Shown here: piece by piece, positions 7,667 to 64,000 of the stretch
How the letters are laid out: each line of letters begins with the position of its first letter
Position numbering within the stretch: position 1 is the stretch's first letter
Virus genome (UHGV): UHGV-0125682
Origin: a virus
Length of the DNA: 64,000 bases
Direction: 5' to 3' (one strand)
Notes under the pieces: generated by a model
The model's input: the letters and a program-made list of their open reading frames with translations, nothing else
The model's database searches: none
Told to the model about the DNA's origin: nothing
Position numbers and translations under genes: made by a program

Positions 7667-10600
7667 TTGAACAAGTCAGTTACTTCCGCGCTATCCGAAG
7701 CAGCAGACATTAACAGTGTTATTGCGCTGGTTTCTTCATTAGAGAGGCGAGAAACACGCCAGGGGCGCAGTAGTTACGTAGTCACCAGTAAAGGGGCAGA
7801 GGTAAAGACGGCTTTTAAGGTCGTTGATGCCAGCAGTCTGATCATTTCGAACAACCTTGACGGTACGATTAATCCGGCCTTCCCGGAAGAACTCCAGCCA
7901 CGTGACCGTACACGGCTATCAAGCAAACTCCAGGTTAACCGTATTGCCTCCAATTTACGCCCGGCACAATTAACGGATTCCGGCATGAGCAGCCACGGAG
8001 CGCCGATAGTTGGTCCGGACAACGTTGTTGAATCCGGCAACGGAAGGAGCATGGGTATCTGGCGTGCCTATGAGCAAGGGCAGGCGGATGAATATCGCCA
8101 GTACCTGATCGATCATGCAAAAGAGTTTGGTCTGAATCCTGACGACATTTCACAAATGTCTATGCCCGTATTGGTGCGAGAAAGACTCACAGATGTAGAC
8201 CGCGCACAATTTGCCCGCGATTCAAACATCAGCGATCTGCAAGAGATGGCTGCAAGTGAAAAAGCGTATGCGGATGCGCAATTTCTCACTGAGAGCGTCA
8301 TGGCGCTATTTAATCCTTCAGATGATGGAAATCTACTGGCGCGGTCCAATGATGCGTTTATTCGTGCGTTTTTGCGCGAAATAGGTGATACGGCGACGGC
8401 AGGTTTGCTTACTGCCGATGGGCGTCCAACGAAACAACTTATCGACCGCATCCAGAATGCAATTTTTGCCAAAGCGTACAAGGATGAAAGGCTTGTTCGG
8501 CTGGTGGCGGAAGAGCCAGATCCGGAAATGCGTAACATTCTTACCGCATTAAATACGGCAGCCAGCGATTTTGCGCAAATGCAGTCGCTTTCAGGTGATG
8601 TTCACCATGACACGGTAACCGGACTGGTAGACGGTATAGAGCAATTGAATGGTCTGGATAAACAGGCTATTGCCGCGCTACAGGAAGCAATTAACCTTGT
8701 TCGTGAAGCAAAAGATAACGGTCAGGCAGTAGAAGAGGTGATCGCACAGCGTGGATTGTTTGGAGATAGCACTCCGGAAGCAGAAGCGCTTGCTCTGTTT
8801 ATTGTTGCCAACAACCGAAGCGCTAAGCGAATGGGGGCAGCTTTCAAGAAACTGGCGCAAAAAATTAACGATGAACTTATTCACCAGCAACAAGCGTTAG
8901 GCGATATGTTCGGCGGCGGAGATGTCGATCTGCGTAGCATTTTATCTGCCGTTTCTGATGAAATTGAGGCTGAGTATGGCGAAGGTAAAGGGCTTAATTT
9001 CGCCATGTTTGAATCGGTTTCAGGAGAGGTCGAACCATACATTTCAAAGCTAATTGCTGATGCGACCAGCGTGGAGGACTTGATCCGAATCGTGAAGGTG
9101 TCAGAAAAAATTAAGGAGTCCGCAAAAAAAATAAAGCGCAATGTATTTTTGGAACTTGGTTTTTATATTCGCAATGTCACCGTTAATGAGATTAAGGAGT
9201 GGGCTAAACGTTATGGATACAGCGACGCTGTGTTAACAACGATGTTATTGTCTTATCAACGCAGCAATTTTTATGCTAACGCACTGCGTGACGCGATTGA
9301 AAAAGGAGATGAAGCTCCTTCGCTCGCAGATGAAAGAAATATTGATTGTGATATTGAAACGTTTTGCAACATATCAGAAGAAGGCGTGCCCGCTGAACAA
9401 TTTATACGTGTTTTACATAATGCAGCAAAACATATTCCTGATGACTTTAGTATTGATGAATTGCGCAATGGTTGTCTTGTTTGGTTAGGTAACTATTTAA
9501 AATCTCCAGCGTCTATTGCAGAGAAAACAGCTTTAAGATTTAGAAAGGAAATGAATAAAGCTGGAAGCGCAGAAGAGATGGTGTGCATAATCCAAAATAC
9601 TTTGAAGTTATTCAAAAAGAGCTTGCATAATATCGACGATATTATGGCGGCTGGTAGGAAAATAACAGCCAGTGTCGGAGTTAGCTCTGAACTAACGGCA
9701 GAGGAGATCGCTGATGCGTATATTGAGACACTTGTCAGGCTTAAGGAGATAGTGGAATTAGCAGAGCATTCCTCATATTACGGAATCAAGGAGCGTGTTG
9801 ACTTTACTATAGAACAAATCAATAAAGTTAGGTCAAATAAGGAAAAACTCACTGACTACCTTGCTGATGTTTTGCACCAGAATGATCATGGGATTGGATA
9901 TGATCTGAAAAAAATGCTTGTTTTTAATCTGGACATACCGGAAGACTTGCAAGCAGAACTATATGAAATAGCTTCATTAACACGTGGACAAAAAGCCTAT
10001 CCTAATGCGCTTGAAAATGTAGTACATAAAAAAGTCAGAGCCGCATTTGACATGATTCTTGAATCGTCAAATGTGTCACATGACCAGTCTAAGGAATGGA
10101 GTCGTGGGATTGCTATTTCTGATGAAGCAGAGCAGTTAAGTGGTCACGATAATGAAACTTTCTCCCGTAAAGCATACAGTATTCGCGAGACGATTGAAAA
10201 AGCCTATATTATTTCAGGAGGGACTTTATCTACATTAAAAAATATTAACCACAAGAACAATGTTCGTGCTTTTGCAAGTCGAAATGGGAATATAACAATT
10301 GATGCTAATAGTGATCACGAGCGTGTATTATGGCATGAAATAGGTCACCATATAGAACATTCAAATCCCCATCTATTGGAGAGGGCCAAAGCCTTCATTA
10401 AATCAAAAACTAACGGTAAAGTTTCTTATCATAATATTGGTAGCCGTGGCAGTGCTGAGTATTTGGTGCGAACCGACCTAAGTCATGGATATATGTCTAA
10501 AATTTATATGGAAAATACGGTAAGTTCTGTCAGCGGCAGATTTATATCAAAGCCACCTGCATTAAGCAATTGCAGGGCGACTGAGATTTTTTCTATGGCC

Positions 10601-10708
10601 TTGCAGATGTATGCCGATCCGGAGCAGGCGACTAACTCTGTATTAAACAATGACGGCGTGCTGGAATTTTTCTTGGGATGTATGAAGGAGTTGCAAAATG
10701 AAGTATAG
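7667..10708 (+). CDS. ddrB: DdrB-like large protein with C-terminal HExxH (putative Zn-metallopeptidase) motif
   Basis: 1013 aa; TTG start with RBS AAGGGGAG; C-terminal half AT-rich; motif LWHEIGHHIEH near aa 880. Confidence 0.45.
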   Translation: MNKSVTSALSEAADINSVIALVSSLERRETRQGRSSYVVTSKGAEVKTAFKVVDASSLIISNNLDGTINPAFPEELQPRDRTRLSSKLQVNRIASNLRPAQLTDSGMSSHGAPIVGPDNVVESGNGRSMGIWRAYEQGQADEYRQYLIDHAKEFGLNPDDISQMSMPVLVRERLTDVDRAQFARDSNISDLQEMAASEKAYADAQFLTESVMALFNPSDDGNLLARSNDAFIRAFLREIGDTATAGLLTADGRPTKQLIDRIQNAIFAKAYKDERLVRLVAEEPDPEMRNILTALNTAASDFAQMQSLSGDVHHDTVTGLVDGIEQLNGLDKQAIAALQEAINLVREAKDNGQAVEEVIAQRGLFGDSTPEAEALALFIVANNRSAKRMGAAFKKLAQKINDELIHQQQALGDMFGGGDVDLRSILSAVSDEIEAEYGEGKGLNFAMFESVSGEVEPYISKLIADATSVEDLIRIVKVSEKIKESAKKIKRNVFLELGFYIRNVTVNEIKEWAKRYGYSDAVLTTMLLSYQRSNFYANALRDAIEKGDEAPSLADERNIDCDIETFCNISEEGVPAEQFIRVLHNAAKHIPDDFSIDELRNGCLVWLGNYLKSPASIAEKTALRFRKEMNKAGSAEEMVCIIQNTLKLFKKSLHNIDDIMAAGRKITASVGVSSELTAEEIADAYIETLVRLKEIVELAEHSSYYGIKERVDFTIEQINKVRSNKEKLTDYLADVLHQNDHGIGYDLKKMLVFNLDIPEDLQAELYEIASLTRGQKAYPNALENVVHKKVRAAFDMILESSNVSHDQSKEWSRGIAISDEAEQLSGHDNETFSRKAYSIRETIEKAYIISGGTLSTLKNINHKNNVRAFASRNGNITIDANSDHERVLWHEIGHHIEHSNPHLLERAKAFIKSKTNGKVSYHNIGSRGSAEYLVRTDLSHGYMSKIYMENTVSSVSGRFISKPPALSNCRATEIFSMALQMYADPEQATNSVLNNDGVLEFFLGCMKELQNEV

Positions 10709-15716: not shown

Positions 15717-16058
15717 GCTGTTTCTAAATCGGAATGTATGATCTGCATCATCGACTGAAGTCATCCATTGCTGAAATTTTTAGTTGATCTTCCATGTTTT
15801 CAGGCTTATATTCATGCCGTCGTAGCAAATTCTGCGACCGGGTTTGACAGCCTGAATACTTACGCGGACAACCGCACATTTCCGATATTGCGGTATTTTT
15901 GTGTCCGTAAAACCACGTTACGCCCGAATTATGGTGGGGCGTGATGGGGAGGCTTCGGCCTGCTGGTTTCGTAAGTGCCAGTCTGTCAACCCTGTCACGT
16001 CCTGCCACCTGTTTGACAGCGGGTCGCAGGTTGTTTATCAACTTACGAGGCCGTAACT

Positions 16059-29124: not shown

Positions 29125-29201
29125 GATGGTGTAGCTCAGTAGGATAGAGCAGCAGCCTTCTAAGCTGTCGGTCGGTGGTTCGAATCCACCCACCATCGCC
29201 A
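29125..29201 (+). tRNA. tRNA-Arg (anticodon TCT)
   Basis: Cloverleaf folded by hand: acceptor GATGGTG/CACCATC, D-arm GCTC..GAGC, anticodon loop CTTCTAA, T-loop TTCGAAT, 3' GCCA. Confidence 0.85.
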
Positions 29202-29203
29202 AT

Positions 29204-29279
29204 GCCGGTTTAGCTCAGTTGGTAGAGCGCCTGCCTTGTAAGCAGGATGTCAGCGGTTCGAGTCCGTTAACCGGCACCA
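29204..29279 (+). tRNA. tRNA-Thr (anticodon TGT)
   Basis: Acceptor GCCGGTT/AACCGGC, D-loop AGTTGGTA, anticodon loop CTTGTAA, T-loop TTCGAGT, 3' ACCA. Confidence 0.85.
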
Positions 29280-31116: not shown

Positions 31117-31192
31117 GGCCCTTTAGCTCAGTGGTTAGAGCTGGCGACTCATAATCGCACGGTCACCGGTTCAAGTCCGGTAGGGGCCACCA
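31117..31192 (+). tRNA. tRNA with CAT anticodon (Met or lysidine-modified Ile2)
   Basis: Acceptor GGCCCTT/AGGGGCC, D-loop AGTGGTTA, anticodon loop CTCATAA, T-loop TTCAAGT, 3' ACCA. Confidence 0.85.
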
Positions 31193-36011: not shown

Positions 36012-37049
36012 TTACCAGAGCTTCGCGGCGTACTGCGTTTGGGGGAATGTGTATCCGTAACGTTCTTCGATTGCTTTGCCGTATTTTTTACGAGCTTCAT
36101 TCAGTTTAATGCCGGTCAGGTCGTCTCCAGAGGCCATCATTACGTCTAACAATTCCAGATCCATTTTATCCAACCTTGCCATTGCTTCACGTGATGTACG
36201 TATCTTACGCTCAATGATATGGCGAATAGCCGGATCGGCATCCTCCAGCATCTTAGCGGATTTCTGCTTAAGGCTTTCATTGCGAATATCGATGTTCCTT
36301 AAGATGTACGACTTCGCAACGTAGCTTGGCTGGTGTTTTTCCAGGTCACGAACACGATATAAGTTAAAATCGCCGAGAAGGCTGCATGGTACCGATTCGA
36401 CGCCAGAATAAATTGTAATGCTCCGGCGTTCACCAACATTATTGACAACGGGGATCGTTGTCTTCGGTAGTCTTGCGAAAACCAATGCGCCATGTGCGCC
36501 AACTCTAAAGCGAGAAAGGGCATTGCTGCCTTCGATGTTTGTTGTCAGCACAACATCTGTATATGCCTCTTTACGCGCCCGGTAGATCTCGCCTTCAGGC
36601 TCAGCTTCAAAGAAGCGCTGTTCTTCTTCAAGAGCACCTACGATTTGAGAAAAAACCCTATTTTTCAGGCTTTTCTTTATGATTTTGTCGTATTTTTTTA
36701 GCAATTGTTCACGTGTAAATGTACGTGTTGTTGTAGCGCTTTGCACAACGACATGCGTGCTTTGATTGGTGTCCTCAATGATGAATGGGATCGGAGAATA
36801 TACAGACTCAACAATGTTCGACGCTTTGCCGTCGGCATCGCGGCACATGTCAACGAAGGCTTTCCATTCAGCAAGACATTTTTCAGCTTCTTCTAATATG
36901 TTTTGGTCATGCGTTAATGCAACATGGCGGAATTCCTCGCCAGCATAACTGGTATCATGGAAAACAGAGTTTGCGACCACCAGCTCTTTCCACCGTTCAG
37001 CGGTTTGCAGGAACCGTTTGTACTCTTTCTCGATCGACTTCTTACTCAT
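36012..37049 (-). CDS. Putative C1-type immunity repressor (by position between pacB and rox)
   Basis: 345 aa; divergent from dre; operator-like motif 12 bp upstream of its start. Confidence 0.4.
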   Translation of the reverse strand: MSKKSIEKEYKRFLQTAERWKELVVANSVFHDTSYAGEEFRHVALTHDQNILEEAEKCLAEWKAFVDMCRDADGKASNIVESVYSPIPFIIEDTNQSTHVVVQSATTTRTFTREQLLKKYDKIIKKSLKNRVFSQIVGALEEEQRFFEAEPEGEIYRARKEAYTDVVLTTNIEGSNALSRFRVGAHGALVFARLPKTTIPVVNNVGERRSITIYSGVESVPCSLLGDFNLYRVRDLEKHQPSYVAKSYILRNIDIRNESLKQKSAKMLEDADPAIRHIIERKIRTSREAMARLDKMDLELLDVMMASGDDLTGIKLNEARKKYGKAIEERYGYTFPQTQYAAKLW

Positions 37050-37443: not shown

Positions 37444-38472
37444 ATGGGCGAATTAATTATCTCTGGCAGTTCCGGTGGTTTTCTGCGCAACATTGGCAAA
37501 GAGTACCAGGAAGCCGCAGAAAACTTTATGCGGTTCATGAATGACCAGGGAGCTTATGCGCCGAATACTCTGCGCGACCTCCGTTTGGTGTTTCATTCCT
37601 GGGCGCGCTGGTGTCACGCTCGCCAGCTTGCCTGGTTTCCGATCTCACCAGAAATGGCCCGCGAGTATTTTCTTCAGCTGCATGATGCCGATCTGGCTTC
37701 GACCACCATTGATAAGCACTACGCCATGCTGAACATGCTGCTTTCGCATTGTGGCCTTCCACCACTTTCGGATGATAAAAGTGTTTCTCTGGCTATGCGG
37801 CGCATCCGGCGCGAAGCGGCAACTGAAAAAGGCGAACGAACAGGCCAGGCTATACCGCTGCGGTGGGACGATCTGAAACTGCTCGACGTCCTGTTGTCCA
37901 GGTCTGAACGGCTGGTGGCCCTGCGCAACCGGGCTTTTCTCTTTGTTGCATACAATACGCTGATGCGTATGTCGGAAATCTCGCGTATTCGTGTAGGAGA
38001 TCTGGACCAAACAGGTGACACTGTCACGCTACATATTTCACACACGAAGACAATAACGACCGCCGCCGGGCTTGATAAGGTGCTTTCCCGTCGCACTACC
38101 GCTGTGCTGAATGACTGGCTGGATGTTTCCGGGCTTCGCGAACATCCTGACGCAGTGCTGTTCCCGCCGATACACCGTAGCAATAAGGCCAGGATCACGA
38201 TAACGCCCCTTACTGCACCTGCAATGGAGAAAATATTCAGCGACGCCTGGGTGTTGCTGAATAAAGGAGATGCTACGCCAAACAAAGGAAGATACCGGAC
38301 GTGGACCGGGCATAGTGCACGCGTCGGGGCCGCTATCGATATGGCTGAAAAGCAGGTCTCTATGGTGGAGATTATGCAGGAAGGAACCTGGAAGAAACCG
38401 GAAACACTTATGCGGTATCTGCGCCGTGGCGGCGTGTCTGTGGGGGCTAATAGCCGCCTGATGGATTTATAA
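37444..38472 (+). CDS. dre: Tyrosine site-specific recombinase, Cre family (Dre-like)
   Basis: 342 aa; Cre-like ...WTGHSARVGAAIDMAEKQVSMVEIMQEGTWK...; 34 bp cognate inverted-repeat site upstream. Confidence 0.9.
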   Translation: MGELIISGSSGGFLRNIGKEYQEAAENFMRFMNDQGAYAPNTLRDLRLVFHSWARWCHARQLAWFPISPEMAREYFLQLHDADLASTTIDKHYAMLNMLLSHCGLPPLSDDKSVSLAMRRIRREAATEKGERTGQAIPLRWDDLKLLDVLLSRSERLVALRNRAFLFVAYNTLMRMSEISRIRVGDLDQTGDTVTLHISHTKTITTAAGLDKVLSRRTTAVLNDWLDVSGLREHPDAVLFPPIHRSNKARITITPLTAPAMEKIFSDAWVLLNKGDATPNKGRYRTWTGHSARVGAAIDMAEKQVSMVEIMQEGTWKKPETLMRYLRRGGVSVGANSRLMDL

Positions 38473-56147: not shown

Positions 56148-56457
56148 CACTGACTGTTGCGCCCTGGCATTATCGTGGGGTATATTTCTACGGCACCTTA
56201 GAAAAACGGGTGCCGGGATTGGAACCCCGGATAATGCAAAAGGCGACACAGACGCCGAAAGCGTCTTTTTTTGTGTCATGCCATCGCACAGCCATACGTA
56301 GCGTTTAGCTCAGAGATCAATGGTAGTGCTGGCTGGGCTGCCGAAAGGCAGGCCGGTTCCCTTTTGCGCCGGTAGTTCCAACCCAGTCAGTGCTACCGCC
56401 ATTGAGATTGGAACCTCACGCGGTAGCTCCTTAAATTAGCAAAAGGAGGCTGCCAAT

Positions 56458-57673: not shown

Positions 57674-57985
57674 ATGAAAAAAATAGATTTCACTTATTCT
57701 GCCGCCACACTTGAGCGGCGCTTCACCCTCATTAGAGAGTTGGAACTGTCAAAAGTCTGGTATCAAATCCTACTGGATGAAGAGTTTTCACTGATGGTTA
57801 TAGCAGAAAAATTGGCTATGCCTAATGATCGGCACAAGGTCATAGCCAGCCTCGATCTGGTGACAAACAGATACTGGGAAACAGAGGAACTACATGAGGC
57901 GGGAGTAATTCGTGACCTGATGGAGAATTCCGTTCCCCGCCGCTATCGTGCAGGGAACGGCATCTCCGTGGTTAAAGGTGTTTAA
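57674..57985 (+). CDS. Hypothetical protein
   Basis: 103 aa. Confidence 0.45.
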   Translation: MKKIDFTYSAATLERRFTLIRELELSKVWYQILLDEEFSLMVIAEKLAMPNDRHKVIASLDLVTNRYWETEELHEAGVIRDLMENSVPRRYRAGNGISVVKGV

Positions 57986-58374
57986 AGCTCACCTGCGCGC
58001 TGTTTTTCAAGCACAGATTTAACATTTGGCGCTTTCCCTTTAAAAGAATGGAAAGTGCCACATTTTTCTGTTTTAACCTCGCGCAGAGCTTCGCCATCGG
58101 CGTTCTGCCATTGATGGGATAATGTCATATCACCGCGAGAAGGAACATCCAGCGAGTACAGCGTGTAAGTTCCCCCCATCTCCGCATACTCCTGGAACAC
58201 ATAGCTCATTACGTCAGATTCAGTTTTTCGGTGTGCGTTATCAACCTTATTCCCATTCAGAAATATGGCATCTGGATAGATTTTTATATCAAACCTACCG
58301 CACTTAACTTGTAAATTTCCGGCGCTCGCGATCAAAGGGAAAGACGCCAGTAAAGCAATAGCCAATCTTTTCAA
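57982..58374 (-). CDS. Secreted protein (signal peptide)
   Basis: 130 aa; MKRLAIALLASFPLIASA. Confidence 0.5.
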   Translation of the reverse strand: MKRLAIALLASFPLIASAGNLQVKCGRFDIKIYPDAIFLNGNKVDNAHRKTESDVMSYVFQEYAEMGGTYTLYSLDVPSRGDMTLSHQWQNADGEALREVKTEKCGTFHSFKGKAPNVKSVLEKQRAGEL

Positions 58375-58394: not shown

Positions 58395-59018
58395 TTATTG
58401 CCCGTATTTTTTACACCATTGCTCTGCCATTTGTTTGGCTAAAGGCCCGGCTACTGCACTGTATTCTGCTGTTTTACTTTGCACACATGAAGCAGATGTT
58501 TTTTTATTTCGCTGCTCGGTTAGTTTGCGCTCATAAGCCATCATGCTATCGAACCCGGCAATATCACTTTGGCGAAGCATTCCCTTTTTAACCAAAAATT
58601 GCTGCCCCTCGGGCACCAGCGCAAGCATAAAAAGTGGTTGTAATAACTCACCTAATCCTTGCTGGCGATACACTTCGAATTGCTGCCATCCCTGACTTAA
58701 TCTGGAAAGAGTATCTTTGGTTGAATAACCTGTTTTTGTTATAGCTTTGTCCGTCAGATATGCTGTATATGCAAAAACGCAAAAGTCAGTTTTACCAATA
58801 AACTGAGTTCCAACAGGCCGTAATGGAATGCCCTCTCTCTTGCAAAAGTCCATAATTGCCGCTTGTGAATGATCCCCACCAGCGTTATTCATAACCTGCT
58901 GCCCTGCCCTGAATTGTGCAGGTAACGCAGTTGCATTGGCTGTATTAACAGATACGCATCCCAACATAGCCGCGAGCGCGGTCCCTAAAACCCTTAACTT
59001 CACTACACCGTCCTTCAT
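58395..59018 (-). CDS. Secreted protein (signal peptide)
   Basis: 207 aa; hydrophobic N-terminus ...LGTALAAMLGCVSVNTANA. Confidence 0.5.
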   Translation of the reverse strand: MKDGVVKLRVLGTALAAMLGCVSVNTANATALPAQFRAGQQVMNNAGGDHSQAAIMDFCKREGIPLRPVGTQFIGKTDFCVFAYTAYLTDKAITKTGYSTKDTLSRLSQGWQQFEVYRQQGLGELLQPLFMLALVPEGQQFLVKKGMLRQSDIAGFDSMMAYERKLTEQRNKKTSASCVQSKTAEYSAVAGPLAKQMAEQWCKKYGQ

Positions 59019-59940: not shown

Positions 59941-60268
59941 TCACATTAGTAGCTTTGTTAACTCCCTCAATACCAGGTAGAAGAGTAACAAAAATATTGA
60001 CGCCAGTATTTGAGTGGACAATGAAGCGTTCATAAACAGATCAATTAGCATTAATAATTCGAAGATAACATCCATGTCATGCACTCCGTTTAATTTTTAA
60101 TCTAATGCCAGCAAATGAAGCTGGCCCCCGCATAAAGATTAATGAAAGTCACTTGTCACCAGTGAGGGGATTTATGAACCACATCCCCCTGAACTGGTGG
60201 CCTGTCTGTTTCTCGCATTTCACACCCTGCATACAGTTTCCCCCAGGTTATGACTGAGGGGCTTTGTT

Positions 60269-60598
60269 ATGGGCTATAGCAGACTCGACGATAGGTACAT
60301 TGAAGACGATATTTTTCGTGCGCTGTTTCACCAGGAAATGATTAAGCGGGTATCGGAGTATCACTCTGATAATTTCCAGTACACGATAAAGATTGATGAA
60401 GTATATCGTTCAGACCTTGCAGCCTACAGGGCGTATGGCAATGCAGATTTGCGCTGGGTATTCCGGGTGCTGGTGGGCCATGAGTCAGAAATGGAAGAAA
60501 TGCCCGCCGGGACCACGTTAACTCTTCCTGATGTGGCATGGCTGAGGAACAAGATCCGTGATTACGCGAGCGCGGAACCGGAGATAGAAAATGCCTGA
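60269..60598 (+). CDS. Hypothetical protein
   Basis: 109 aa. Confidence 0.45.
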   Translation: MGYSRLDDRYIEDDIFRALFHQEMIKRVSEYHSDNFQYTIKIDEVYRSDLAAYRAYGNADLRWVFRVLVGHESEMEEMPAGTTLTLPDVAWLRNKIRDYASAEPEIENA

Positions 60599-61781
60599 TT
60601 TCCTGAAAAACCAGGACGGGCGCTATATCACTGACGGTCTGTCCTCTAAGGACTTCACGCGTTTATTCGACCTTATCAGGAAAGAACAAACCCGTAAGCG
60701 CCGACAAGCTCACCGGACGCTGACGCCAGGCAGACTTAGGAACAAATCCGCCGAAGATATTCTCAAGTTAGGGAAGAAAAAAGGCGGCACGTTCTTTACG
60801 CGAGACGATCTGAAAGGCTTCGAAAAGCTACGGAGTAAAACGCGCGAAAAATATGACAGCAAGACGGCTGGCATCACATACGCCCAGCTGGTGGCATCCA
60901 GCCAGGCTATCGATATTAAGCGTGCAAATAACGCCGTGGATGACGGATCTGGTATCAAAAGAGCTACACCCGTATCTCTTCGCCACAATGTGATTAATAT
61001 CCGCGTAGAAGCATCGGATATATCCGTCCACCAGCACCATATCGTCCGGATACGCTTTGAAGAATGGGATCAGATGGTTGATGATATCGCAGAAGACGAT
61101 AAATCAGCTCTCAAAATCACTAAATCACTGTGCGCCGGGCGAGTGTCTTTCGATTGTGACTGTGGTCGTCATCAATACTGGTATCGTTACATCGCCACTG
61201 CGGGTAACTTTGCCCTGGCACCGCCAAAAGAATACGCCTATCCAAAAGTTCGCAACCCGAAGCTGCAAGGCGTCGCCTGTAAACACGTGATCCACTCAAT
61301 GACGCGGTTACAGTCCGCCAGTTGGCAAATGAGTATTGCTCGTGCGCTACAAAAGGCTGCAACGCAAATTGCATTTGGTGACGATCGCCGCCGTACAACC
61401 AAACACTTCTCAAAAGAAGACGAGAAGGAGTTTAATCGCAATCGTAGCAGTAAAACGAACGTTGACGCTGCCAAGCGAGAATGGAGGCTCTATCAGAAGC
61501 GCCAGGCCGCTTTAAGCACAAAACTGGCAAAGGACAACGGCAAGATTGACAAGCTACGTGACCAACTGACCAAGGCCAGAAAGTTGTCAGACGCACAGAA
61601 AAAACGGGCGGCAGCAAAAGAAGCGGCGTTGCAACGTGAGAAACAGAAAAACAAGGAGCTTCAGCAACGCCTGGCCGATCAGTTCGCACTGAAGAAGCAG
61701 GCGTTCATTGATGCGCTTGTCATGGCTGGAACACCACCAGCACAAGCTGAAAAAATGTTCATGGAGTACATAAAAAATTAA
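60591..61781 (+). CDS. Hypothetical K/R-rich protein with SWIM-like CxC...CxH zinc-finger motif
   Basis: 396 aa; ...FDCDCGRHQYWYRY...GVACKHVIH...; basic coiled-coil C-terminus. Confidence 0.5.
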   Translation: MPDFLKNQDGRYITDGLSSKDFTRLFDLIRKEQTRKRRQAHRTLTPGRLRNKSAEDILKLGKKKGGTFFTRDDLKGFEKLRSKTREKYDSKTAGITYAQLVASSQAIDIKRANNAVDDGSGIKRATPVSLRHNVINIRVEASDISVHQHHIVRIRFEEWDQMVDDIAEDDKSALKITKSLCAGRVSFDCDCGRHQYWYRYIATAGNFALAPPKEYAYPKVRNPKLQGVACKHVIHSMTRLQSASWQMSIARALQKAATQIAFGDDRRRTTKHFSKEDEKEFNRNRSSKTNVDAAKREWRLYQKRQAALSTKLAKDNGKIDKLRDQLTKARKLSDAQKKRAAAKEAALQREKQKNKELQQRLADQFALKKQAFIDALVMAGTPPAQAEKMFMEYIKN

Positions 61782-61783
61782 CA

Positions 61784-61808
61784 AAGGTGGGTTTATCCCA
61801 CCTTTTTA
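61784..61808. terminator. Bidirectional rho-independent terminator
   Basis: AAAGGTGGG-TTTATC-CCACCTTT flanked by A- and T-runs, between convergent genes. Confidence 0.7.
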
Positions 61809-62524
61809 TTAGCATCGCATTTAATTTTTTCAAGTGAATCAGAAAGCTTTGAGAGAAGCTCCTCAAGTGTTTCCCTGTCATTTGTATCACCCGAACGAAA
61901 AGATGAGTTTTTCACGGCGGTAAAAAATTCATAAAAATCATCCACCGAATTTAAGCTCTCACCTTTCTCTCTATATAATTTAATAATATGAATGATATCG
62001 CTATCCACACATTCAATCTGTTTCCTAATTTCTTTAAGCCGTTTTTCTAATGATTCAAGTTCTTCTTCTTGTTCAATATACTTTTTAACGTCTCTCTGCT
62101 TCTTAATGGCTTTCTTAATATCACTGTTAATTGTCCTTATTTGTTCTTTTTTATTTGCAATTTCATCTATTTTTCTTAATTTAGCATATAATGTGCTTGT
62201 CACCAAAGAAATTAACAGGGTTAACAGTGGCGCTAATATTGATGCCACAACACCATAAATAAAAGGCAAAACAAAATGAGCTACGAACGATGGTAAAAAA
62301 AGATTCCCCAATAATGGGATCTTTTCCCCGACAAACACTATAGATAATGTATACATAACATCATCTTTTGACTTCAGTAATATAAATATGTCTCGCCAAT
62401 TAGAAATTAAAAACGAAATAAAAATGTAGGCAAAAACCTTATTAAACAACTTATCTTTTACAGCATCTTCTAACAGATTTTGGGTAGAGGAGTTTTCCTT
62501 TTCTATTGATGAATCAGCGCTCAT
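61793..62524 (-). CDS. AT-rich membrane protein with C-terminal coiled coil
   Basis: 243 aa; hydrophobic helices in residues ~30-110, then K/E-rich heptads; markedly lower GC than neighbours. Confidence 0.55.
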   Translation of the reverse strand: MSADSSIEKENSSTQNLLEDAVKDKLFNKVFAYIFISFLISNWRDIFILLKSKDDVMYTLSIVFVGEKIPLLGNLFLPSFVAHFVLPFIYGVVASILAPLLTLLISLVTSTLYAKLRKIDEIANKKEQIRTINSDIKKAIKKQRDVKKYIEQEEELESLEKRLKEIRKQIECVDSDIIHIIKLYREKGESLNSVDDFYEFFTAVKNSSFRSGDTNDRETLEELLSKLSDSLEKIKCDANKKVG

Positions 62525-62555: not shown

Positions 62556-62580
62556 TGTAAAAGCGGTCATCCAGACCGCA
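62556..62580 (-). terminator. Rho-independent terminator downstream of higA
   Basis: Minus strand GCGGTC-TGGAT-GACCGC followed by TTTT. Confidence 0.6.
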
Positions 62581-62584
62581 AAAC

Positions 62585-62944
62585 TTAAACACCAACCAGA
62601 CTTTCCAGTGGAATACCAAACTGGGCATGTAAACGACGAATCATAGGTAACGTCAAATTTCGTGTCCCATTAAGCACTTCGTAAACACGGTTTGACTTAC
62701 CAATTGCCGGTTCCAGATCCTTCACGGTCAGCCCTTGCTGTTCCATACGGAATTTAATGGCCTCAATAGGTGATGGTGGCTCAATTGGGTAATGTTTTTT
62801 CTCGTACTCCTCAATGAGAAGACACATGACCTCAAAGAAATCACCTTCCGGGGTGTTCATTTCCGGTTCGTTATCGAACATCGGTTCGACCGCACGCAGT
62901 GCGGCCTCATAATCTTGTTCTGTACGGATAGGTTTAATGTTCAT
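62585..62944 (-). CDS. higA: HigA-type antitoxin (XRE HTH)
   Basis: 119 aa; C-terminal HTH ...LTVKDLEPAIGKSNRVYEVLNGTRNLTLPMIRRL...; directly downstream of HigB-like toxin. Confidence 0.75.
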   Translation of the reverse strand: MNIKPIRTEQDYEAALRAVEPMFDNEPEMNTPEGDFFEVMCLLIEEYEKKHYPIEPPSPIEAIKFRMEQQGLTVKDLEPAIGKSNRVYEVLNGTRNLTLPMIRRLHAQFGIPLESLVGV

Positions 62945-62947
62945 GAT

Positions 62948-63250
62948 TTACTCCAGTTCTATTGTATCCGCTTCAATGGCATCGTATTCCTTATGTGTTC
63001 CAATAAACTTAACGAACATCCATCCTCGCTGATAAGCAATTGCGACAATTAACCTGTAATCATTTCCCTTAATATTGAACACCACGCGCCTGTTTTTAAG
63101 GATGCTGGCTGTCCGGTACTGTTCTTTGATCTCAGCCGGATTTTTCCAGTCAGCCTTTGTTGCTTCATCAACCCATGCCTTTAATGGCTGTTCTGCATCG
63201 GGATTCTTCGCCCAGAAATCCCTTAGTGTTTTTACCGAAATTATTTTCAT
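62948..63250 (-). CDS. higB: HigB-type toxin (RelE/ParE superfamily)
   Basis: ~100 aa from MKIISVKTLRDFW...; ...FVKFIGTHKEYDAIE... resembles HigB GTHKEYD motif; RBS GAAGGA. Confidence 0.75.
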   Translation of the reverse strand: MKIISVKTLRDFWAKNPDAEQPLKAWVDEATKADWKNPAEIKEQYRTASILKNRRVVFNIKGNDYRLIVAIAYQRGWMFVKFIGTHKEYDAIEADTIELE

Positions 63251-63280: not shown

Positions 63281-63326
63281 GTCCCAATATGGGACAATGT
63301 AAAGCACTTTAGTCCCATGCTGGGAT
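63281..63326. promoter_or_regulatory. Twin palindromic operators upstream of higB
   Basis: GTCCCAATATGGGAC and GTCCCATGCTGGGAT, 31 bp apart. Confidence 0.55.
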
Positions 63327-63395: not shown

Positions 63396-64000
63396 ATGGG
63401 CCGTTTTGACGAATGGTTTTCTGACGATGCAAACCTGGCAAGTAAGGAGTCAGAACATGACAGCACGCAGAGAGAAACGCCAGCGCCGATTGAAGCGAAT
63501 GCAGGAGGCGCGCCGGAACATGGCAATACCAGTTCGGATTCATTCAGCATTCTGGAAGAGCAACCCGCCGCCAAAGCTGATAGCCATGATAATTTTGCTG
63601 ATAGCAACGGTGGCCTTACTCCAGATGCTGGCGAATCAGATATAGCCATACTTCCACCTTCCCTGGCTGGCAGAGAACCAACTCCACAGCTAAAAGCACG
63701 CTATAACGGGCATAAAGCCTTTAACGACCAAATCCGCGCAGACTGGATGCTGATTATTGAATCCAGCCCAGACGCGTTTCAGGCTCTCTTATATCGACCA
63801 GATGTTGGCACATATGGGGTAGTCAGCGACGAAACAGGAGAAGAGTCATTCACTGAACTGGATAACAACCAGCGCGAACTGACTTACCAGGAACCTGAAA
63901 TCGTTTATGTGCTGGATAACCCGGACGGGCGTGACTCTTTCCATGCGATTGACGCAGACGGTGAGCAGGATGGCTTAACCGATGATGTTCTGATTCTGCG
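63396..64000 (+). CDS. Hypothetical acidic protein, 3'-partial (runs off window; not in ORF track)
   Basis: ATG at 63396, open for 201 codons to window end; divergent from higB. Confidence 0.5.
   Translation, partial: MGRFDEWFSDDANLASKESEHDSTQRETPAPIEANAGGAPEHGNTSSDSFSILEEQPAAKADSHDNFADSNGGLTPDAGESDIAILPPSLAGREPTPQLKARYNGHKAFNDQIRADWMLIIESSPDAFQALLYRPDVGTYGVVSDETGEESFTELDNNQRELTYQEPEIVYVLDNPDGRDSFHAIDADGEQDGLTDDVLIL

Follow-up and report, generated by a model that had tools for sequence, protein, structure and literature searches.

This locus raises the question of what is encoded by a gene far richer in A and T than the DNA around it, placed beside a higBA toxin-antitoxin (TA) pair and opposite in strand to the tail genes of a phage. 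The gene, referred to here as FAM, lies near the right end of the UHGV virus genome stretch UHGV-0125682, whose 64,000 nucleotides are called the window throughout. Sequence comparison shows that FAM travels as the last of three genes in a higBA cassette and also, on its own, as cargo of many temperate elements; what is new is a TA-linked cassette whose third gene encodes a novel membrane protein. We tentatively propose, with a confidence somewhat short of even, that FAM is expressed from the prophage and serves at the membrane as an effector or sensor in phage exclusion or abortive infection (Abi).

The compositional anomaly is confirmed by calculation. The open reading frame (ORF) is present exactly as drawn by the first-pass annotation (61793-62524, 243 amino acids, aa), which had also held its GC content to be far below that of the surroundings, had suggested a windowed calculation as the check and had named an insignificant difference as evidence to the contrary. 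The calculation gave a GC of 31.7% for FAM (28.7% at third codon positions, GC3) against a window mean of 47.8% (standard deviation 3.6%, segments of 732 bp). Only 0.3% of the 732-bp segments are as low, every one of them overlapping FAM, and the lowest-GC segment of the 64 kb starts at 61821, within the gene. The same tendency is found across the family, the GC of every member examined being lower than that of its own flanks by 4 to 17 points.

The surroundings of the gene bear on how it came to be there. The region matches Escherichia phage D6 and around 90 non-mobilizable plasmids of ~90 kb from E. coli and Salmonella, and among 5,426 complete E. coli genomes it is plasmid-borne only; by these matches the window is therefore assigned to a D6-like, P1-related E. 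coli phage-plasmid. The tail genes of P1 run 26-25-7-24-6-5 without interruption, genes 25 and 7 being separated by 3 nt, and Cronobacter phage JK004 likewise has these two genes side by side. In the window, as in D6, an opposite-strand block, higB-higA-FAM, stands between gene 25, whose protein is 57% identical to P1 gp25 and 99% identical to D6 orf74, and gene 7. Since P1 and JK004 keep the two genes together, the block is, on comparative grounds, an insertion (a 'moron') into the late tail operon. The earlier proposal of a horizontally acquired cargo is thus strongly supported by the absence of the block from P1 and its antisense orientation to the tail operon, and is further backed by the AT-richness of FAM in every context examined and by the occurrence of the three-gene unit on a Klebsiella IncFIB plasmid. 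A paper on a Salmonella D6-like element names only higA-higB as an addiction system.

The two genes upstream of FAM conform to what is expected of a TA pair. A RelE-fold toxin gene directly precedes a helix-turn-helix (HTH) antitoxin gene, with a gap of 3 nt between the higB stop and the higA start; HigA matches Pfam HTH_3 (3.8e-5, 24.1 bits, cut-off 23), and an identical protein is labelled HigA family antitoxin in RefSeq. The mechanical higB ORF reaches a GTG at 63307, and a coding sequence of 303 nt is annotated in sister plasmids. Judged by gene order and domains, higB-higA qualifies as a type II HigBA toxin-antitoxin, and both genes lie directly upstream of FAM on the same strand. The description of FAM in the first-pass annotation as standing beside higBA was correct as to adjacency and missed that FAM belongs to a cassette of three genes that is a distinct mobile unit. 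The evidence for mobility comes from Klebsiella, in which 54 plasmid records have a FAM match. In the one whose cassette context was checked (L056, an IncFIB plasmid of Klebsiella pneumoniae), HigB-HigA-FAM lies between IS66 and IS903B. A block of 1,731 bp, 95% identical, is common to an Enterobacter D6-like phage-plasmid (L020, 4010-5740) and to L056 (3980-5704); its limits are ~190 bp upstream of higB and 2 nt past the FAM stop, and the encoded proteins are 99% (HigB), 99% (HigA) and 91% (FAM) identical. Because this single block is common to the Enterobacter and Klebsiella plasmids, it demonstrates, as far as sequence can, that higB-higA-FAM moves with its promoter between replicons as one unit of 1.6-1.7 kb.

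The association with higBA is nevertheless not strict, as can be seen from 47 FAM loci surveyed for intactness and upstream genes. Every D6-like slot in the survey holds FAM, and it is the upstream genes that vary: HigB with a 119-aa antitoxin (HigA119) in 10 loci, RelE and HigA112 followed by an intact HigA119 in 7, RelE and HigA112 followed by a truncated HigA119 in 12, a different pair of HigB and HigA139 in 2 loci of Enterobacter, and nothing at all in L043 and L044, in which a more distant P1-like phage has FAM in the same tail-gene slot. On a second plasmid type of ~95 kb, the arrangement is HigB-HigA138-FAM in one locus (L046), and in three others (L017-19) FAM follows TacA-TacT and an N-terminal HigA remnant of 68 aa (L017/L018/L019 4710-4916), which is 41% identical to the Enterobacter HigA139. 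By its sequence and position, this remnant is the footprint of one TA pair having replaced another ahead of FAM. The FAM gene itself is intact in 45 of the 47 loci, its frame being broken or shortened only at L027 4001-4731 (147 + 83 aa) and L036 3811-4440 (209 aa), while HigA119 is truncated in 12 and HigB replaced in 19. FAM would therefore have no strict need for HigB or HigA, since it is kept intact where its partners are replaced, truncated or absent.

A second variable TA slot is found 1.5 kb from the first. In the sister plasmids pGF4-B and pAPEC201603, an extra RelE/ParE-HigA pair (L002 906-1477; L004 33-604) lies between a mat-like gene and gene 26, and the corresponding position of the window (59941-60268) holds only ~330 bp.

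The variation of FAM itself is of another order than that of its neighbourhood. When the window was aligned with seven sister elements, nucleotide identity was 95-100% in genes 26, 25, higA/higB and gene 7, and fell to 42-70% exactly within FAM; in one allele class, the break lies ~125 nt inside the gene. The window's own allele class (L021) shares 92% of residues with the window FAM in the N-terminal half and 76% in the C-terminal half, the corresponding values for the other classes being 56-66% and 20-27%. This single site in E. coli and Salmonella backbones holds at least 8 allele classes (<75% identity), and HigB and HigA that are 99-100% identical are found alongside FAM alleles only 39-65% identical. 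The ratio of non-synonymous to synonymous substitution rates (dN/dS) between allele pairs is 0.2-0.35, and FAM is consequently shown, by sequence comparison, to be a real gene under purifying selection. In the closest pair (window and L021), dN/dS is 0.12 in the membrane half and 0.75 in the cytoplasmic half. Since dS within FAM (0.25-1.6) is far above what the near-identical flanks allow, we infer that the alleles are old and have been exchanged by recombination, and were not made in place.

FAM belongs to a family considerably larger than its annotation suggests. It matches phrog_8191, the family of D6 orf73, over its full length (5.9e-74, residues 1-241 on profile positions 1-242 of 242), and the function field of this PHROG is blank (PHROGs v4). 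A word-indexed search with FAM returned 15 clusters, all from E. coli, and a profile search run exhaustively over 1.84 billion representatives returned 72 clusters at E <= 1e-3, nearly all of whose representatives are 200-300 aa long and matched over the full length. With these matches, phrog_8191 grows to 72 representative clusters, spread over Enterobacterales and further afield, and reaches replicons that are not phages; apart from the unannotated PHROG, the family is previously undescribed. A scan of species-representative genomes with a profile of the D6-like subgroup found no relatives, and a genome scan with another subgroup profile found 8 loci. The longer family members were searched for added domains, and none that was informative was found. 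The first-pass annotation had considered that homologues found only as structural phage proteins would speak against a defence cargo; the relatives are not structural. It had also suggested a PADLOC search, in which no defence model matched FAM outside the coiled coil: the best matches in PADLOC-DB v2.0.0 (LmuB at 1.1e-5, PbeC, JetC) all lie on residues 112-239, a pattern repeated across 51 family members. The match to Pfam TraS, the model of an entry exclusion protein, was below the gathering score (13.4 bits, cut-off 27.4, E = 0.063).

Outside the higBA-type cassettes, FAM is found in a variety of elements, most of its contexts being clearly on mobile ones. It lies 11 nt downstream of a gene for a zinc-ribbon and DUF4145 (HEPN) protein with a match to PD-T7-4, a validated defence gene (4.8e-13), beside resolvases (L012); 88 nt downstream of a gene for an AbiTii-domain protein (3.9e-37), between serine recombinases, in Erwinia (L048); two genes downstream of a NACHT NTPase (L055); and at a distance of 1.4 kb from a reverse transcriptase of the retron type, with an IS30-like transposase gene, as read from the sequence, in between (L054). 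HEPN domains and AbiTii have been tied to abortive infection (PMC3710099, PMC13064643). Copies that stand alone take up cargo positions of prophages: between gpD and ogr in a P2-like prophage (L045), in a lambdoid nin region (L016) and between the terminase and portal genes of an Advenella phage as read from translated ORFs, with no family search (L053). Other copies are situated after a umuC-like gene and beside a Bro-N gene (L047), beside a tyrosine integrase in L049 and L050 (confirmed by Pfam in the former only), in a soil island (L013-15) and alone in an Enterobacter chromosome (L010). In around 8 of ~19 independent contexts, the gene immediately upstream on the same strand is a TA, Abi or defence gene. 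A conserved hidden partner was sought among the upstream neighbours of unknown function, and none was found.

The predicted protein has the architecture described by the first-pass annotation, namely hydrophobic helices followed by a long coiled coil, and this is borne out by both hydropathy and AlphaFold. Hydropathy delimits hydrophobic blocks at aa 30-50 and 69-115. An earlier AlphaFold model on 9 sequences was poor (predicted local distance difference test, pLDDT, 63); with an alignment of 51 sequences the pLDDT reached 86, and the predicted helices are 6-26, 29-51 (kinked), 56-64, 79-186 (unbroken), 194-206 and 214-242. The hydrophobic periodicity of the coiled coil is 3.5 residues. Across 51 diverse relatives, N42 is invariant and W43, S52, P87 and P99 are at least 90% conserved; the conserved part of FAM is thus the membrane hairpin, and the coiled coil and C-terminal domain keep a pattern and not a sequence. 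Family-wide, the density of lysine and arginine is lowest in the loop between the helices (0.11) and peaks just after the second hydrophobic helix (0.23). This distribution fits a hairpin with both termini inside the cell and a cytoplasmic coiled coil. A profile search with FAM against PDB sequences gave no match. Several of the non-significant fold matches of FAM in the PDB were two-helix pore modules of cation channels, a likeness that we take as a coincidence of topology and not as evidence.

The signals in and around the cassette are listed in Table 1. Because autoregulation by HigA is known (PMC11980606), the inverted repeats upstream of higB are considered a probable HigA operator overlapping the cassette promoter. 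A stem-loop fills the higA-FAM spacer in three cassette lineages (the window, Enterobacter/Klebsiella and L046), its sequence differing between them; in the window its probable role is that of an attenuator or of a structure at an mRNA end. At the other end of the gene, FAM and the convergent tail gene 25 have a hairpin in common; it overlaps the stop codon of FAM and encodes the last FAM residues, KKVG. Terminator-like hairpins are therefore present at both ends of FAM, in agreement with the first-pass annotation, whose weak promoter of FAM's own was not confirmed: promoter-like matches in the region number 4, which is not above the expectation from shuffled sequence (5.0 +/- 2.4), and the only one on the minus strand (62668-62640) is inside higA.

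Table 1. Features of the higB-higA-FAM cassette and its flanks in the window.
Feature	Position	Strand	Description
Tail gene 25 homologue, left flank	60591..61781	+	phrog_1722 tail protein, 5e-197; cassette starts right after its stop
Two-way terminator-like hairpin	61783..61805	both	9-bp stem with 5 GC pairs, then T run
FAM (ORF)	61793..62524	-	ATG start, 243 aa; predicted inner-membrane coiled-coil protein; third, hypervariable cassette gene; phrog_8191 member
FAM coiled coil (aa 114-186) and small helical C-terminal domain (aa 187-243)	61796..62185	-	predicted by AlphaFold and periodicity
FAM membrane helix 2 (aa 79-113)	62186..62290	-	predicted by hydropathy (to 2.26); P87, P99; runs on into coiled coil
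FAM membrane helix 1 (aa 29-51)	62372..62440	-	predicted by hydropathy; AlphaFold helices 29-41 and 43-51, kink at N42-W43
Stem-loop in 60-nt higA-FAM spacer	62563..62579	-	GCGGTCTGGATGACCGC then TTTT
higA antitoxin	62585..62944	-	119 aa; N-terminal toxin-binding-type domain and C-terminal HTH; no peptidase domain
higB toxin	62948..63250	-	100 aa from ATG at 63250; Pfam HigB_toxin 5e-34, 116.8 bits
Inverted repeats upstream of higB	63282..63325	-	TCCCAATATGGGAC / GTCCCATGCTGGGA; repeat search
Tail gene 7 homologue, right flank	63396..64000	+	starts MGRFDEW; matches D6 orf69 / P1 gene 7; runs off window end

How FAM may act can be formulated as follows. The cassette, antisense between tail genes 25 and 7, would be placed for expression from the plasmid prophage and not with the late genes. 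Transcription from the HigA-autoregulated higBA promoter would probably read through the spacer hairpin into FAM, an arrangement that may keep the basal level of FAM low and let it rise on loss of the antitoxin. The variable cytoplasmic part could recognise a phage component or a state of the cell, and the conserved membrane hairpin, oligomerised via the coiled coil, could be the effector, which would either perturb the inner membrane (abortive infection) or block genome entry (exclusion). A defence role of this kind, already suggested by the first-pass annotation, is plausible from context, namely from the repeated TA, Abi and defence neighbours, which across loci comprise HigBA, RelE-HigA, TacAT, a PD-T7-4-like gene, AbiTii and a NACHT NTPase, and from the hypervariable allele pattern, typical of conflict genes. 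Several observations weigh against it. FAM and 51 family members returned only coiled-coil noise from Pfam, NCBIfam and PADLOC, and a Foldseek search of BFVD and PDB returned generic helical matches only (E >= 1). A literature search by FAM protein accessions and PHROG id found nothing on the family. About half of the independent contexts have no recognisable defence neighbour, and guilt by association is weak in the cargo regions of mobile elements, where many kinds of accessory gene gather. The dN/dS values carry no gene-wide signal of positive selection, and relaxed constraint on the coiled coil combined with recombination could be the source of the allele diversity. Expression of FAM in lysogens is an assumption of the proposal, and the scan of the 60-nt higA-FAM spacer found no promoter-like site.

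Some of these same observations would suit a membrane cargo unrelated to phage defence, engaged in envelope or stress adaptation or in competition between plasmids or phage-plasmids, or persisting as an addiction-stabilised passenger. We hold this to be possible, if on the unlikely side. The many types of mobile element and the varied neighbours, among them umuC-like and metabolic genes, are in keeping with it, as are the lack of a match to any defence model, the several contexts with no defence gene nearby and the fact that AT-richness is common in horizontally acquired genes of diverse function. However, deep allele diversity at a fixed site in near-identical backbones is not expected of a housekeeping-type accessory gene, and the genes right next to FAM on its own strand are again and again those of toxins or Abi proteins, from five different families. 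A role tied to the TA pair itself, with FAM as the obligate, membrane-anchored third component of a tripartite HigBA that would control the release of HigB or localise the complex, for addiction, defence or both, can be conceived by analogy with tripartite HigBA-type defence systems (PMC9519451, PMC11980606), its logic being that of the HigBAC/TAC chaperone or of the third PD-lambda-2 gene, and we judge it unlikely. The triad is conserved across four replicon backgrounds, and the FAM stop marks the end of the transferred unit; the genes share a strand, with a spacer of 60-70 nt bearing a stem-loop in three lineages; between the two main lineages, divergence is much alike for all three proteins (HigB 26%, HigA 28%, FAM 36%); and a HigA remnant stays in front of FAM even after TacAT has taken the place of HigB. 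Yet FAM is intact and under purifying selection where RelE-HigA112 replaces HigB and HigA119 is cut to 66 aa, this being the commonest allele class (L005 and L026, dN/dS 0.20), and it stands alone in the tail-gene slot of L043 and L044 and in numerous further elements. A C-terminal extension of the chaperone-addiction type is absent from HigA. Moreover, since an identical HigA/HigB pair meets FAM alleles of 39-65% identity, the variable half of FAM does not co-vary with the pair.

A role in lysis or virion morphogenesis, as a holin, antiholin, spanin-like protein or tail assembly helper, could be envisaged from the position of FAM between tail genes 25 and 7 and from its combination of membrane helices and coiled coil, as in i-spanins, and it is very improbable. 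The gene and the late tail operon lie on opposite strands, P1 and JK004 do without the gene, and it is not near lysis genes; the cassette is also found on a non-phage Klebsiella plasmid, and FAM on chromosomal islands. In addition, the protein has two membrane helices and, by its charge distribution, a large cytoplasmic domain with the coiled coil, which in i-spanins is periplasmic. The preferred reading of FAM as a membrane effector or sensor for exclusion or abortive infection can be carried further, to a new and widespread family of membrane effectors that pair modularly with translation-targeting toxins (HigB, RelE, TacT, HEPN/DUF4145 and AbiTii-type) and so make up a class of TA-coupled membrane defence cassettes not recognised before, with an infection-responsive, autoregulated TA promoter, a hypervariable specificity domain formed by the coiled coil and C-terminus, and a pore made by the Asn-Trp hairpin; this larger scheme as a whole appears to us quite unlikely.

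The matter is of some consequence, as phage-plasmids of the D6/P1 type occur commonly in E. coli, Salmonella and Enterobacter and spread resistance genes. Should FAM act in defence or exclusion, the anti-phage repertoire would gain a new protein family, and FAM would offer a natural allele series for mapping specificity and a simple test system for TA promoters as sensors of infection. If it does not, the allele diversity at this site still calls for an explanation.

Other features of the window were noted in passing. Two C4 antisense RNA genes lie on the plus strand, the one at 15927-16012 with a c4-a1b1 target element at 15806-15858 and the other at 56316-56403 with an isrK-like RNA at 56193-56271; they imply two immI-type immunity loci in one element. 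P1 presumably has one such locus. Three tRNA genes, for Arg(tct), Thr(tgt) and Met(cat), are found on the plus strand at 29125-29279 and 31117-31192. An ORF of 1013 aa (7667-10708, plus strand) bears a HEIGHH zinc-metalloprotease-like motif, and its C-terminal half (~9300-10600) is the second most AT-rich stretch, with a GC of ~0.37. A low-GC ORF of 345 aa (36012-37049, minus strand) adjoins one of 342 aa (37444-38472, plus strand), the latter a candidate Cre-like recombinase judging by its position and sequence alone. Finally, two minus-strand ORFs of 130 and 207 aa (57982-58374 and 58395-59018) with signal-peptide-like N-termini sit where D6 has a simB-like superimmunity gene, at another variable site for cargo, which is probably envelope-directed.

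It remains to compare the cassette with known systems. The closest in appearance is PD-lambda-2, a three-gene anti-lambda system in which B is a fusion of an HTH and an ImmA/IrrE peptidase and C is P4-antitoxin-like (Vassallo et al. 2022, PMC9519451). HigB matches PADLOC PD-Lambda-2_A at 1.9e-41 and HigA matches PD-Lambda-2_B at 6.9e-43, and both systems are same-strand operons of three genes whose third gene is no TA component. However, the match of HigA covers only positions 1-119 of 402, since the protein ends after the HTH and has no ImmA/IrrE peptidase by Pfam, and FAM is a two-helix membrane coiled-coil protein with no match to PD-Lambda-2_C. Identity with PD-lambda-2 was consequently rejected despite the strong A and B matches, because the features of the B fusion and those of the C type both fail. 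The HigBAC/TAC and CmdTAC systems likewise combine a HigB/HigA-type pair with a third gene, and an E. coli HigBAC/TAC version reportedly senses a phage structural protein and responds with abortive infection (PMC11980606, PMC9519451). In TAC systems, the third protein is a soluble chaperone of the SecB type, bound to an extension at the C-terminus of the antitoxin, whereas FAM encodes a membrane protein. FAM has no SecB or chaperone match in Pfam or NCBIfam, and HigA119 lacks the chaperone-addiction extension; the cassette was for these reasons not identified as TAC/HigBAC.

The cassette resembles higBA of the E. coli K-12 type in placing the toxin gene first, in combining a HigB_toxin domain with an antitoxin of the HTH kind and in having a palindrome in its promoter region, and it differs in that the canonical locus has two genes and the transferred unit described here includes a hypervariable third. 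No sequence or fold similarity of FAM to any annotated family was detected, and its nearest counterparts have to be sought by design. Among these are the inner-membrane exclusion and Abi proteins of the prophage type, such as lambda RexB, T4 Imm, P22 SieA/SieB and HK97 gp15. FAM differs from them in its long cytoplasmic coiled coil and in its membrane hairpin with the conserved N-W and P...P motifs. What it would have in common with these proteins is their general design only, that of a small inner-membrane moron of a temperate phage, encoded outside the late operons.

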